NCBI GenBank assembly: GCA_951406725.2 | Contig: OX597825.1 | Coordinates: forward strand, 43,958,001 to 44,022,000 | DNA length: 64,000 nt | Direction: 5' to 3' | From: Octopus vulgaris | Taxonomy: Eukaryota | In this document: piece by piece, positions 36,117 to 60,399 of the stretch | How positions within the stretch are numbered: the stretch's first letter is position 1 | How the letters are laid out: every line of letters starts with the position of its first letter | Program-made: the position numbers and the translations under genes | Notes under the pieces: generated by a model | Told to the model about the DNA's origin: nothing | Database searches by the model: none | What the model saw: only the letters and a program-made list of their open reading frames with translations

Positions 36117-36263
36117 CTAGCAGTATCGCCCGGCGTTGCTCGGGTTTGTAAGGGAAGTAACTATATAAGCATTTTTAGAGAGTTATAGCCAAAAAATAGC
36201 AAAAAAATGCATTAAAAATGGAAAAAAAATTATGGTAAATTTTTTCTTAAAGCGTTGACTCAT
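36117..36263 (-). mobile_element. Non-autonomous Helitron, 3' end
   Basis: Reverse complement of cccgagcaacgccgggcgatactgCTAG, as at 44379 and 56836. Confidence 0.85.
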
Positions 36264-42478: not shown

Positions 42479-43376
42479 TGTATATATATATATATATGCA
42501 TGTATATGTATATATATATACATCTCTGTCCCTCTTTCCCTCTCTCTTACCCTCTTGCGACTTGCTGCCTCAGCCATTCCGTTCCCAAAGGCCGCTTGTT
42601 CAACATGTGTCTCCTCACCGAAAAGGTAATTATTTTTCCACGCTTGCTGATAAATTGTTTTTGTGTCTCCTTTTGTCTCAAAGCCGTAGGGCGCCTGTGT
42701 CATCCTTGTTTTTAACCGTTACTGTCTTCAAAAAAGTTTTTTTCGTTTCATGTTCGTCTCTGTTGCGTTGCATTCTTTCCTTCTGGGGCTGGCCGATTCA
42801 GAGCAGATCTCAGAATTAAACAGCTGAAATTTGCGATGATGAATCGGTTTCTGACTGAAGAAGGAAGGCTTTGAATGACCCATCTGTCTCTTATGTTCGT
42901 CCCTTCGTGTATTTCACGTTATTTATATATGTAAAGGTTTATTATATATGCATGTATATGTATATATGTATATATATGCATATGTATATATATATATATG
43001 TGTGTGTGTATGTATATATATATGTATCGGCTCTCAATTGACCAACTGTGAGGAAGATAATGATAATTTTAAATTCAAATCCAATAGTGTATTTATGTCA
43101 TAAGGAAAATCATTAACTGGAACCCGGACATACATATATACCGCTCTGGATCCTAATGTAAGCGTTATTAATACTATTATGAATGATAATAATGGTAACA
43201 TTAATGGTATTGACAACGATAATGACGCTAACTTTAATGACACTTTAGAAATTATTATGAAGTAATATAATGTACTATTGACTATGTATATTTGCATCTA
43301 GGTATTAATTTGTGTATGTTTATTATCACAATATTAAGTCGAAAAACTGAGACATTGAATGTGGAACACATATATA

Positions 43377-43881
43377 TGTTTACTAATTTATATTATTTAT
43401 TTATATCATTATGTATATGTATATTTTTATATGTATAAGAGTGTGAGTATATGCACTCATATGTATATGTATATGTTGTATTATGGGTATGCACCCACAC
43501 CCATGTGGGTATATATGTAGAGTGATTTATATTACATAATCTCCGAAGAGGCCTTATGATATTTTTGTAAATGTTTCATTTATATCTATATATTGACCAA
43601 CCATAAAGGGCTAATATTGGTAAAATGAGACATACTTATCTACATGGCCGAAACAGCTGTAAGATGTAATCTATACTTATATTTATATTTACTTATATTT
43701 ATATTCTCTTTTTATATATATTCTACTTATTATACAACATTACCCTTTTATGTACACTGATTTGTTCTGCTTTTTATATTTAACCCTACAGTCTCTTATG
43801 TGGTGGTTTAATAAAGTATGTGATTGAGTATTATCTGGTAATTGATATTTGATTTAGATGTATTTCTCCATTTTCTTATCT

Positions 43882-43884
<3 letters not shown>
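43377..43884 (+). mobile_element. ~510-bp AT-rich repeat carrying a hammerhead motif (Penelope pLTR/retrozyme-like), copy 1
   Basis: Near-identical to 56837-57376; hammerhead at 43531-43670. Confidence 0.75.
43531..43670 (+). ncRNA. Atypical type-I hammerhead ribozyme with extended helix II
   Basis: atct CCGAAGA ggcc [92 nt] ggcc GAAA cagctg TA agat; stem I atct/agat plus attac/gtaat; palindromic ACAGCTGT stem III; GUA site. Confidence 0.7.
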
Positions 43885-43928
<44 letters not shown>

Positions 43929-44009: not shown

Positions 44010-44379
44010 TCTCTCTATATATAAACGGCAGTTTGTCTGTGTGTGTTTCTGTGTGTCTGTTAGGTTGTACCCTCACCCTGACCACGGCTTTCAACCGATT
44101 CTGATGAAACTTGACACACACATAGCCCAATGTCATAATTCAAAACTAACGCAGCGAAAATTTTGAAAAGATCCCCCAGTTCTGATAAAAATCGATAAAT
44201 TCGACATGGGGTCGAGAATCAGAAACACAAACCACAGACTGTCTAGGGGACGCAACTCGACCTTTTTAACTAAAAACAATTTACCATCATTTTTTTCCCA
44301 TTTTTTGGCTATAACTCTCTAAAAATGCTTTATAGTTATTTCCCTTACAAACCCGAGCAACGCCGGGCGATACTGCTAG
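44010..44379 (+). mobile_element. Complete non-autonomous Helitron
   Basis: A|TC 5' end, subterminal hairpin cccgagcaacgccggg, CTAG|T 3' end, no TSD. Confidence 0.88.
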
Positions 44380-45476
44380 TATATATATATATATATATAT
44401 ACATCCATTTCAGCTAACCTTATCAATTGGTTTTTTATACTTGATATTAAACAGAGTGGTTAAGGAATACCATGTGCTTTGGAGAGATGGCAAGTGCGGG
44501 GATGATGCGATGTCATATTTATTTCATACCTACCATGGTGAAGTGCTGCAGGTGTTATGTAACTGCACTGTTATCTAATATCTATTACCCAGTGCAAAAC
44601 CAACTGGTAAGATCACCTGAAATGGATCTAAAATCCTGTACACTGTGATTAATATACCCATTCTATTGAGAATTATACAAGTACATACTTTTTCTGAAAA
44701 GTTGACAATTTGAGGATGCATTGAAATGAAATGAAAGACAGTCTTAACTCATTACCTGTTTTATACTTCAACAACTGTAACAAGTTGGAAAAAAAACACA
44801 AATTTGTATTGTTCATGACAGTTGGTTTGCATAAAACATCTCTCGTCTAGTCCTTATAATAGTCTGCTACTAAATGTGTGGAAGGAGAAAGGCAAAGTGT
44901 GCAAGTCTTGCAAAAAAAAGATTTTTGTTTGTGTGTGTGTGTGAATGAAAGCTGAATCATGACAAAGTTACTAACTAAAAGTAACAGATGTAAACTGCTT
45001 GGAAATCAGAGAAGGGCCAGGATTTTTTCTTTAACAGGTATCAAGAGCATGCACCTGCATTAAACCTTTGTAAAAATTGAACTAGGTCAATAAAATTAGA
45101 ATTAAATGAGCTCATATTGATTCACCTTTCTTTCACCTATGATGATGGAGAATTGAAGAAATTAAATGGATTTTAATTATGCAATCTGAGAAGAATGGAA
45201 ACTTGAAACAAATATGAAACCTGAGGGTCACTCCCTGGTTATGATTCAGCTGTATAATTTCAATATACGTTCATATAAATCATATACGTTGTATGTATGT
45301 GTGTGTGTGCGTGCATGCGTGTGTGTGTGTGCGTGCATGCGTGTGTGTGTGTGTGTGTATTCGGCCATAGCACAACCAATAACCAGTTGTTAGAACTCAA
45401 TATACTTATATATAACACCTCTTGGTGTACTGAACATTTTTGTTATTATTTTCTTCTTTAAATTGGTGATTCTTAC

Positions 45477-56438: not shown

Positions 56439-56836
56439 TCTTTATATAAGAGTGAAGTTGTGTGTCTGTCTCCTACGATTTAGATTCGTAACTACTCCCA
56501 CATTTTGCGGTGCAGTTTAACCAAAAGCGGGTATCTTATAGTCGTGATTCATATCGAGCCCTTCTGGGTATTAGCGCGCGTCTACGATGAGTCTACGATT
56601 TAAAAAAAATTTACCATCATATTTTTCCATTTTAATGCATTTTTTTCGCTTTTATATAAGGGAAGTAACTCTCTAAAAATATCTACGATGTGTCAACGAT
56701 TTAAAAAAAAAATTTACCTTAATTTTTTTTCAATTTTTAATGCACTTTTTTTTGCTATTTTTTGGCTATAACTCTCTAAAAATGCTTATATAGTTATTTC
56801 CCTTACAACCCGAGCAACGCCGGGCGATACTGCTAG
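56439..56836 (+). mobile_element. Non-autonomous Helitron (different 5' half, same 3' end as the 44010 copy)
   Basis: A|TC start; cccgagcaacgccgggcgatactgCTAG|T end. Confidence 0.85.
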
Positions 56837-57450
56837 TGTTTACTAATTTATATTATTTATTTATATCATTATGTAAATGTATATATATTTTTATATGTAT
56901 AAGAGTGTGAGTATATGCACTCATATGTATATGTATATGTTGTATTGTGGGTATGCACCCACACCCATGTGGGTATATATGTAGACTGAGTTATATTACA
57001 TAATCTCCGAAGAAGCCTTATGATATTTTTGTAAATGTCTCATTTATATCTATATATTGACCAACCATAAAGGGCTAATATTGGTAAAATGAGACATACT
57101 TATCTACATGGCCAAAACAGCTGTAAGATGTAACCTATACTTATATTTATATTTACTTATATTTATATTCTCTTTTATATATATTCTACTTATTATACTA
57201 CATTACTCTTTTATGTACACTTTTTTATGTACATTCCTTTATGTACACTGATTTGTTCTGCTTTTTATATTTAACCCTACAGTCTCTTATGTGGTGGTTT
57301 AACAAAGTATTTGATTGAGTATTATCTGGTAATTGATATTTGATTTAGATGTATTTCTCCATTTTCTTATCTTGTATTAGTAATTTGTGGTAAATCATTT
57401 TACCTTTGCCCATATAATACAGTAAATGAATTGATTGCATCGCAATCCTT
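56837..57450 (+). mobile_element. Hammerhead-bearing pLTR-like repeat, copy 2
   Basis: Matches 43377-43884; core CCGAAGA at 57007, but GAAA changed to AAAA at 57114. Confidence 0.75.
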
Positions 57451-57956
57451 AACATTTATGTATTAACTTTGTTGGGTACTTCACTAGCAGTATATATATG
57501 TTATCCCATGGAGGGTTGCATTTACAACCCCTATCTCAATTTGTATTTATATATATATATAGAGAGAGATTAGAGACAGGTATTCTCTGTATAGAATACA
57601 CTTTGTAGTGCTCAAGAGATTTGAATTTGAGAAGGTAGAGGAGTAAATGTAAGGACAAGCAAGTTAGGTAAGTCAATTTTGTACATATGTACATTTTTTT
57701 GTATTAAATGTATTTAATATTTTCATAAAATTGACTTACCTAACTTGCTTGTCCTTACATTTACTCCTCTACCTTCTCAAATTCAAATCTCTTGAGCACT
57801 ACAAAGTGTATTCTATACAGAGAATACCTGTCTCTAATCTCTCTCTCTATATATATATAAATACAAATTGAGATAGGGGTTGTAAATGCAACCCTCCATG
57901 GGATAACATATATATACTGCTAGTGAAGTACCCAACAAAGTTAATACATAAATGTT
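57451..57956. repeat. Long palindrome: 230-bp arms, 46-bp spacer
   Basis: 57451-57680 is the reverse complement of 57727-57956, with one difference seen in the (AT)n(AG)n tract. Confidence 0.97.
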
Positions 57957-57994: not shown

Positions 57995-58580
57995 ATATCA
58001 GGAATTAAAGATGAATAAGAGTGGAATATCAGGAATTAAAGATGAATAAGAGTGGAATATCAGGAATTAAAGATGAATAAGAGTGGAATATCAGGAATTA
58101 AAGATGAATAAGAGTGGAATATCAGGAATTAAAGATGGATAAGAGTGGAATATCAGGAATTAAAGATGAATAAGAGTGGAATATCAGGAATTAAAGATGA
58201 ATAAGAGTGGAATATCAGTAATTAAAGATGAATAAGAGTGGAATATCAGTAATTAAAGATGAATAAGAGTGGAATACCAGGAATTAAAGATGAATAAGAG
58301 TGGAATATCAGGAATTAAAGATGAATAAGAGTGGAATATCAGGAATTAAAGATGAATAAGAGTGGAATATCAGGAATTAAAGATGAATAAGAGTGGAATA
58401 TCAGGAATTAAAGATGAATAAGAGTGGAATATCAGGAATCAAAGATGAATAAGAGTGGAATATCAGGAATTAAAGATGAATAAGAGTGGAATATCAGGAA
58501 TTAAAGATGAATAAGAGTGGAATATCAGGAATTAAAGATGAATAAGAGTGGAATATCAGGAATTAAAGATGAATAGGAGT
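57995..58580 (+). repeat. 31-bp minisatellite, ~19 copies
   Basis: Unit atcaggaattaaagatgaataagagtggaat, period 31 (57997, 58028...), few substitutions, no spacers. Confidence 0.97.
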
Positions 58581-60399
58581 TTTACAAGTCCAGCAGCTGT
58601 TTCTGGAGGCTTGGTGATCCAAAATAATGTTTGTAACTTGATTCCATCATCAGATAACACTAGTCTTTGTCTTCAGGGAAGAATTTTACATTTGAGGTGT
58701 TGACAGAATGGAGTTTAAAGATGGAATGATTTTGTGTATTAGAAAGAAGAGTTGGGGGTGTTTAGATAGAGAGTAGTAGGAGGAGAAAATAGATTTTGGG
58801 GTTAGGGTTAATAATGAGGCTAATGACAGTAGTAGAGGTAGAAGGTTAGAGGAAGAGGGAAGGGTGGTTTAGGTAGTATGTGAGTGATAACCTTTGTGTT
58901 AGTTTGTATGAAGGCTATAGAGTTAAAGGTTGAGATAGTGAAAGGGCATGGCTATTTTCTGAGGGAAACAAGCTGACTGGTCCTCCCCCCACTACTCTCT
59001 ATCTACCCCCACACACACACACACAACTCCTCTTTTTAACCCCAGAATCATGTGGTTGGGAAGCAAGTTTAACTTTTCTAACATGGAAGAGCCCCAAAAT
59101 TGATTTTCAAAGCTTGAATGCAATAAAAAGTTTTATAGGAAACATTTTATGCAACTGAAAGAACATTGTTTATTCAGTATAATGCATGAAATTTGATGCA
59201 TTTTATATGACACTCTCTTCACAAAAATGACAAATCATTGTTGCGATTAAATTTAGCTACTTCTGAAAATTTCTTAAATCATGTAATACTCATTGACTGT
59301 TGAATATGACAACTGAACTCATGTGGAAGATACTGTACTAGCAACTATAGGAAGATCTTTAGATGGAATCAAATGAAGGAAAAGAAATTTACTTTTATTT
59401 AATGTTTATGTTTTCTCTTTCCTTCTGTCTTTTTCTCTTTTTTTTTTTGTTTCTTCCTTCTACTCCTTTTTTCCCAAAGAAACAGAATTTTTTTTAGTGC
59501 AAATATAAAGAATAGACACACACACAAACAGACAGAAATGTATGTACATATGCTAATTAGATATGTTTATTTCTTAATTCAGTCATTTGTTTTGTCTGTT
59601 TTCCCATGCTGATGACTAAAATCACAGGAGCTTGAGAGGTGAATGGCAAATGGTTAGAGGTGGGGATAGAAGGAGATGCAGTGAGTAGTGAACACAGCTG
59701 GAGGCATGGTCAATCATGAATATCAGTTGGAGGGGAAGGTGGATAAAGTATGTATTTGTCAGGGAGGTAAAAAGATGGCAGCAAAGATGATGTGATGTGT
59801 GTGGGGTGCAAGAGAGAGATGCATTGAGGGACAGTGTCAGAGATACATATGGGTGGAAATGGTGAGGGACAAGCAGTTGGAGGTGCGCTGCAGCTGGCAG
59901 AATGAGGGTGTGAACAGGTAAAGAGGGTGAAAGAGACTTTCATTAGAAAATAAGGTAGGAAGAGATGATACTGAGAATGAGTGAGAAAAAGGAAATGATT
60001 CCAGAGAGAATGAATAATAGGGGAATGAAATGTATGTAGTTCCACTCTCATAATTACAACAGCTGAGTGAGTTGTGCATTAGTCAGAAGAGTGACAGAGG
60101 AGTTGGGGTTAGGAAGATGGGATGTAGGAAAATGGATGTAAAAGGGATTGTCATCAGGGACAGATTTGCTGCAGGGGCATAGACATAAGCAATATGCTTT
60201 TAGGGCCTCTGCTTTGCTTAAATGAATGCGAATGTCAAACCCTAAATCTCATCATGGTTCAAGAATGGCTGACTGAGAATTCTCATGATCATATGATTTC
60301 TAATGTGTGACATGAAAACATGGAATTCTGCATTTGGGGCAAGTGAAGGAAGTGATAAGTAGCCTTAGTTCTAAATATTTGTTGGAGATGTGGTCAAGG

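Follow-up and report, generated by a model that had tools for sequence, protein, structure and literature searches.

A Type-I Hammerhead with a Long Helix II and C at Core Position 4 in a Hydra-Clade Penelope-like Element of Octopus vulgaris

Introduction

Penelope-like elements (PLEs) of the Hydra clade are defined by the RWK, DKT and CxCX5C motifs, by the absence of CCHH and by CxxC/CxH; they insert into (TA)n and are generally shorter than 3 kb (PMC8557442). The clade has already been recorded in Octopus bimaculoides, where it is represented by Hydra-1_Obim (PMC8557442). In File S2 of the same work all Hydra rows have a hammerhead core with U at position 4 (U4), and the published loop 2 comprises 3–10 nt (8 nt in Hydra-1_Obim).

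The role of the hammerhead in PLEs is open: its in-vitro activity is low, and in one reconstituted system it is dispensable and no RNA ends are found at the cut. In that system, the Poseidon element PAc, hammerhead cleavage is protein-assisted and could be dispensed with in vitro (PMC11167929). Replacement of U4 by C has been described for a viroid hammerhead variant, which is much slower in vitro, though sufficient and viable in vivo (Perreault 2011, PMC3088659).

The locus considered here lies in a stretch of Octopus vulgaris DNA of 64,000 nt (contig OX597825.1, positions 43,958,001 to 44,022,000 of the forward strand), which is called the window below. Its motif is a type-I hammerhead located in the 3' UTR/pLTR of a Hydra-clade PLE that encodes a reverse transcriptase (RT) and an endonuclease (EN).

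Results

The Hammerhead Motif

Sequence inspection confirmed the motif at 43531..43670 (Table 1). All parts of a type-I hammerhead are present in the correct order: C3–A9, G12–A14, the A15.1–U16.1 pair and an NUH site (GUA), with the cut predicted after A17 at 43661. Position 4 is the sole exception in the core, since it carries C in place of the U of the canonical CUGANGA. The ordered junctions, the GUA site and the paired stem I, which had been proposed in the first-pass annotation, were thus confirmed. A relaxed descriptor, allowing any base at position 4 and a helix II span of up to ~150 nt, finds this motif as the one site in the 64-kb window and gives one match in 200 dinucleotide shuffles. 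Scanning against Rfam yielded no hammerhead match at E ≤ 1, and nearly all matches obtained were to microsatellite-driven miRNA models. The published descriptor requires 'cuganga' and limits loop 2 to 10 nt (PMC4209133), so that the motif would indeed be missed by descriptors with a short loop II, as was expected.

Table 1. Positions in the window of the hammerhead parts and of the two copies of the element.
Feature	Position	Strand	Basis
Helix I, 5' strand: ATTAC (43531–35), ATA bulge, ATCT (43539–42)	43531..43542	+	Sequence, constrained folds
Core C3–A9, CCGAAGA (U4C variant)	43543..43549	+	Genome-wide exact 24-mers; anchor-sampled copies
Helix II: GGCC (43550–53), paired 92-nt extension (43554–43645), GGCC (43646–49)	43550..43649	+	Fold z, between-family covariation
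GAA, G12–A14 (43650–52); palindromic stem III ACAGCTGT (43653–60); N17 = A (43661)	43650..43661	+	Duplex energies; copies starting at the cut
Helix I, 3' strand: AGAT (43662–65), GTAAT (43666–70); first bases of the predicted 3' product	43662..43670	+	Sequence, constrained folds
Copy 1: 5'-truncated 3' end (3' UTR/pLTR) of family-A Hydra-clade PLE	43028..43885	+	95% match to the L061 3' UTR
Copy 2: same family, +426-type 3' end, broken core	56837..57545 (end approximate)	+	Sequence comparison

The whole 161-nt region folds no better than shuffles (z −0.77). Helix II alone reaches a fold z of −2.2 in copy 1, a stability that 4 of 150 shuffles equal, and of −2.95 in the common type; it is conserved and covaries between families, in agreement with the earlier view that the insert is structured. 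Helix I comprises 4 bp next to the core, and the unconstrained fold of copy 1 favours a shifted helix I. For stem III the intermolecular duplex of ACAGCTGT is worth −11.1 kcal/mol, versus +2.4 for the monomer hairpin, so this helix is predicted to pair only as a dimer. The assignment to type-I PLE hammerheads with a palindromic stem III was upheld.

The Element

Both copies belong to a dispersed and abundant family, called A here: an exact 24-mer located downstream of the cut occurs 870 times genome-wide. The upstream walk from the motif leads through a 1.9-kb UTR to a GIY-YIG endonuclease and an RT, which occupy a single ORF with the endonuclease at its C-terminus; the element is ~5.5 kb long including the pLTR. 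One near-full-length locus (L061) comprises, in order, an inverted 5' copy, a 5' pLTR starting 10 nt above the cut, the RT-EN frame with one frameshift, the UTR, the hammerhead and the 3' end. Sister family B has intact RT-EN frames of 955–960 aa. The three family-A RT matches with at least 97% identity contain open frames of only 399–458 aa, none of which is full, and family A may no longer be active.

The hallmarks of PLEs were found, namely the pLTR, 5' truncation, inverted 5' copies and the hammerhead within the pLTR. The 5' ends in family A are variable, and two 3' ends occur at about +252 (64/96 copies) and +426 (28/96) from the cut; both are TTGTA and, in the copies inspected, run into (TA)n. 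The RWK and DKT motifs, the CxCX5C linker and CxxC are present, and the GIY-YIG core contains no CCHH cysteine pair. CxH is seen in family B and in several family-A copies and is lost in L061. By these diagnostic motifs and by insertion into (TA)n, family A is assigned to the Hydra clade, the typical length of which it exceeds. Twenty related full-length loci were compared, and a hammerhead is assignable in 15 of them. The Pfam scan of two pieces of the L061 frame returned nothing at E ≤ 0.1. Many protein homologues carry PF26215; among the 120 matches listed, the only named eukaryote is represented by an Octopus sinensis protein (91% identity over one third of the query).

The repeat had been regarded as non-autonomous and retrozyme-like. 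A ~510-bp non-autonomous PLE derivative, or a retrozyme making small circular RNAs, would agree with the short and non-coding nature of most copies, but it is very improbable. The family-A loci examined show neither a fixed 5' end nor tandem units, and copies run on without a break into the 1.9-kb UTR and the RT-EN ORF; L061, L062, L065 and L118 contradict this reading. The sequence in question forms the 3' end of a Hydra-clade PLE coding for RT-EN; neither label was retained, and the retrozyme reading was rejected.

In the related family C1 the anchor recurs four times with a spacing of 3624 nt (G000:C1:119514306-119525204), forming a head-to-tail array of unit-length elements. A subfamily of A (L048, L051–L053, L056, L131 and L146) has lost ~60 nt just upstream of the core, and its new flank yields a continuous helix I of 7 bp.

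The Two Copies in the Window

Copy 1 is the counterpart of the last 858 bp of L061. It is flanked by TA-rich microsatellites and has a 3' end of the +252 type (TTGTA, then (TA)n). It is a dead, 5'-truncated insertion carrying an intact motif. Copy 2 keeps the palindrome and the cut site and has two lesions: GAAA>AAAA (G12A, 57114) and, in helix II, GGCC>AGCC (G>A at 57014), by which the first helix II pair is broken. Because of these changes it is not an intact ribozyme. The G-U to G-C difference between the copies, earlier taken for a helix-keeping covariation, turned out to be a one-sided C>T private to copy 1, C being present in 35 of 35 sampled copies. The supposed ~510-bp repeat unit is the mere overlap of the two truncated copies (Table 1).

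No splice joint was found across copy 1 in assembled contigs, which by their nature cannot reveal RNA ends. A possible 97-nt coding exon with AG/GT borders lies at 44455–44551 (+), and one unique contig covers the exon together with its borders; if this exon is real, copy 1 would be located, in sense orientation, within an intron. The 3' end of copy 2 and its flanking DNA form a perfect 230-nt inverted repeat (57451–57680 and 57727–57956, 46 nt apart), which is either a fold-back duplication or an assembly artefact. Repeats at ~44010–44378, ~56440–56836 and near 36138 (−) end in a hairpin (CAACGCCGGGC) and CTAG; judging by this signature, they are presumably Helitron-like. One of them abuts the 5' end of copy 2 and another lies just beyond copy 1. 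A tandem array with a 31-nt period (~20 units) occupies 57995–58614.

C at Core Position 4

The first-pass annotation suspected that C4 could be a family trait and not a deviation from a CTGAAGA consensus. This was borne out by family-A exact 24-mers, which occur genome-wide 142 times with CCG versus 3 times with CTG. Copies sampled by a downstream anchor carry C4 in 33 of 35 cases, and a second sample of 26 contains 20 C, 2 T and 4 unparsed copies; CpG decay and query bias as sources of C4 were rejected on the basis of these anchor-sampled copies. At this position no alternative letter reaches the 10% level in contigs of four sequencing runs. The remaining core positions and the bases of helices I and II are kept as the majority state in family A.

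Family A', with 92% RT identity to A, was sampled at 30 loci, in a sample that leans to its query; of the 24 copies parsed, 22 carry CTGAAGA. Families B, C1, C2 and C3 have U4. In the RT tree family A falls outside A'+B, at a fork that is open as to the A/A'/B root, and the outgroups are U4. Since A stands in this position and the outgroups have U4, parsimony suggests that C4 in family A is likely derived.

The core was also claimed to be an unusual variant. This holds for the fixation of C4 in family A; the U4C substitution is precedented in a viroid (PMC3088659), and, having been described there, the change itself is already known. The literature searched contained no retrotransposon family in which U4C is fixed, and surveys of PLE variants (Lunse et al. 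2017) may describe such cases.

The Long Helix II

Helix II spans 100 nt in families A and A', 85–86 nt in B, 55 nt in C1, 57 nt in C2 and 53–54 nt in C3. In most families it folds well (z from −1.8 to −7.4), that of family A being less stable than that of B. A comparison of nine sequences drawn from A, A' and B shows changes on both sides in 7 of 31 pairs (7 of 27 helix II pairs). The double-sided changes amount to 16 cells, a value reached by 0 of 500 shuffles (13 of 500 for pairs), with 1–5 cells in slid controls; this covariation rests on ~3–5 related lineages. Helix I in the same set shows no covariation within A/A'/B.

The 8-nt palindrome that forms stem III is not the same in all families; A, A' and B share one. 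Its palindromic nature in the other families is partly a matter of construction, because a palindrome was required by the scan. Conservation of the long arm suggests selection on structure. Retrotransposon hammerheads with a long stem II, or Terminon loop-2 variants, were not found in the literature searched; the supplements of PMC4209133 and of the preprint (10.64898/2026.07.22.740005) may list some.

Further hammerheads with other palindromes (L021, L020, L114, L165 and L166) have helix II spans of 59, 44, 25, 77 and 22 nt, respectively. They belong to families without a traced ORF.

Genomic Evidence for Cutting

More than half of the sampled family-A copies (52/96) extend across the site, and in many full-length elements the entire motif is present in the 5' pLTR. 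Because of this, uncut or re-ligated RNA can be regarded as the main template.

Family-A 5' ends are enriched just downstream of the cut. The 0..+19 bin contains 12 of the 64 ends at risk (Fisher p 0.007), and in a second sample, for which the bin had been fixed beforehand, it contains 9 of 42 (p 0.0002). The bin is AT-rich and can absorb ends through (TA)n microhomology; it shows a weak excess in family B (4 of 53 ends, p 0.09) and none in C1 (0/63).

A stricter genome-wide probe took the 25 nt that follow a chosen offset and demanded that each of the three letters before them differ from the element. At the cut, family A gives 7 matches at 6 loci. The controls at −16, −12, −6, −2, +4 and +11 give 0, 0, 0, 2, 0 and 2, that is, 4 over six fair offsets. 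With all 6 loci the binomial p is 0.001; if ambiguous junctions are dropped, it becomes 0.005 (5 loci) or 0.018 (4 loci). Offsets +2 and +9 (both 0) were kept outside the main test, since TA flanks cannot pass their three-letter prefix. Copies with such exact starts are few (7 of the 406 matches of that 25-mer); two of the seven lie at fold-back junctions where AGAT provides 4 nt of microhomology, and others permit a shift of 1–2 nt. One insertion (L314/L380) is composed of an inverted arm and two direct pieces, all starting at the cut.

The U4 families behave similarly. In family B there are 6 matches, 5 of them true starts (L389, a core variant and not a truncation, is left out), against 0 at −12. 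In C1 there are 7 matches at 6 loci versus 2, including several fold-backs in which each of the two arms stops at the cut. The signal in the C4 family A is no weaker than in these U4 families. The simplest reading of the exact starts is that the RNA has a 5' end at the nucleotide predicted. Since these starts exceed the controls, the U4 sisters are alike and most copies read through, cleavage in vivo appears likely but infrequent, and the motif probably still cuts in the cell.

Short fold-back insertions of C1 (L392–L395, L398) have arms that end at most 2 nt from the cut and are joined by 1–3 extra letters. In L401, L402 and L400 the inverted arms break at nearly one place before the direct arm, which suggests a preferred template-switch point.

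The same data could be explained by a ribozyme that is inactive in family A. U4C would then have been fixed because PLEs transpose from unprocessed RNA, and the ends near the cut would result from structure stalls and microhomology in AT-rich, self-complementary sequence. Insertion of hammerhead mutants in vitro and the lack of RNA ends at the cut in PAc (PMC11167929) agree with this, as do the read-through of 52 of 96 sampled copies, the AGAT/ATCT microhomology adjoining the cut, the lower stability of helix II in A than in B, and the fact that none of three candidate family-A ORFs is intact. However, the peak falls precisely on the predicted nucleotide, and the offsets around it have low counts; it recurs in B and C1 despite their different downstream sequences; and in family A the other core positions and the helix I/II bases are retained as the majority state. 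Inactivity is therefore considered unlikely.

Cutting in trans is a still less probable alternative: the C4 core would be nearly dead, and family-A RNA would be cut by the U4 cores of the sister families A' or B. The three families share the ACAGCTGT palindrome, A' additionally shares the ATCT strand of helix I, U4C lowers activity in vitro (PMC3088659), and in the established double-hammerhead model each core cleaves the site of its partner. Nevertheless, cutting in trans needs co-expression and trans pairing, whereas a partner in cis is supplied by the pLTR-ORF-pLTR transcript, and the larger U4 families do not surpass A (6 loci) in their exact-start signal.

Discussion

The preferred explanation combines a type-I hammerhead of a Hydra-clade PLE, a long helix II shared by related families, a likely derived C4, and a likely cut after 43661 that is made by the dimer at low efficiency; taken as a whole, it is held to be reasonably probable. 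In a transcript of the pLTR-ORF-pLTR type, or of a tandem locus, the two ACAGCTGT palindromes could pair to form stem III and hence a double hammerhead. This would cut slowly, perhaps with the aid of the protein of the element, as in PAc. The endonuclease would nick (TA)n, and reverse transcription could start internally at +252 or +426, downstream of the ribozyme. On cut RNA the RT would run off at the cut, producing copies and fold-backs that begin there; on uncut, re-ligated or circular RNA it would read through, producing longer copies and pLTRs, as in most copies. The tolerance of U4C could be explained by cutting being slow and not a strict requirement.

A broader proposal is put forward only tentatively: a subclade of Hydra elements in octopus may have turned helix II into a conserved arm of 50–100 nt, perhaps a protein-binding folding aid, and with this arm one family may have multiplied to many hundreds of copies while relying on a U4C core with remaining cutting activity in vivo. 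If this is true, the cut-start copies and fold-backs in three families would be direct genomic evidence of PLE hammerhead cleavage in cells, and cleaved PLE RNA would serve as a template.

The families form a natural series, with helix II of 53, 55, 57, 85 and 100 nt and with U4 versus C4 in otherwise close relatives. Together with cut-start copies as a simple genomic read-out, this series makes the role of the PLE hammerhead testable. Descriptors of the 'cuganga, short loop 2' kind undercount PLE ribozymes. The hammerhead class, the Hydra clade (recorded in octopus) and the U4C change itself are already known. Relative to the literature searched, the long helix II and the family-wide U4C are new variant traits of a PLE hammerhead; the genomic evidence for cutting in vivo is modest.

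Comparison with Known Systems

Hydra PLEs (Craig et al. 2021, PMC8557442) resemble family A in the C-terminal GIY-YIG, in RWK, DKT, CxCX5C and CxxC/CxH, and in the absence of CCHH. They also share insertion into (TA)n, inverted 5' copies and a type-I hammerhead near the 3' end; the likeness of the octopus element protein to Hydra-1_Obim was judged by eye only. Hydra elements are mostly shorter than 3 kb, whereas the octopus element is ~5.5 kb long with an ORF of ~960 aa (intact in sister B). The Hydra rows of File S2 have CTGANGA and a loop 2 of 3–10 nt, in contrast to CCGAAGA and a helix II span of 100 nt in family A (PMC8557442).

Minimal PLE hammerheads (Cervera & de la Pena 2014, PMC4209133) are, like that of family A, of type I, with a short helix I, a palindromic helix III suited to dimers, G10.1–C11.1 and a location in the pLTR. 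Their descriptor contains 'cuganga' with loop 2 of no more than 10 nt, and the core variant reported is U3-A8, not U4C (PMC4209133). The viroid U4C (Ambros & Flores 1998 via PMC3088659) is the same core change; it concerns one viroid variant, whereas in family A C4 is fixed across hundreds of retrotransposon copies. Animal non-LTR retrozymes (Li et al. 2026, 10.64898/2026.07.22.740005) share the type-I hammerhead and PLE origin, but they are short, tandem, non-coding units; family A, by comparison, represents the truncated tail of an element with coding capacity.

Poseidon PAc of Anolis (Frangieh et al. 2024, PMC11167929) is similar to family A in having two internal sites of RT initiation downstream of the hammerhead, AT-rich targets and a mostly unprocessed template. 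The initiation sites of PAc are 30–40 nt apart inside the ORF, whereas those of family A are 174 nt apart in the pLTR. In PAc, according to the published account, RNA ends at the cut were not observed (PMC11167929); in family A, by contrast, some genomic copies begin at the cut.
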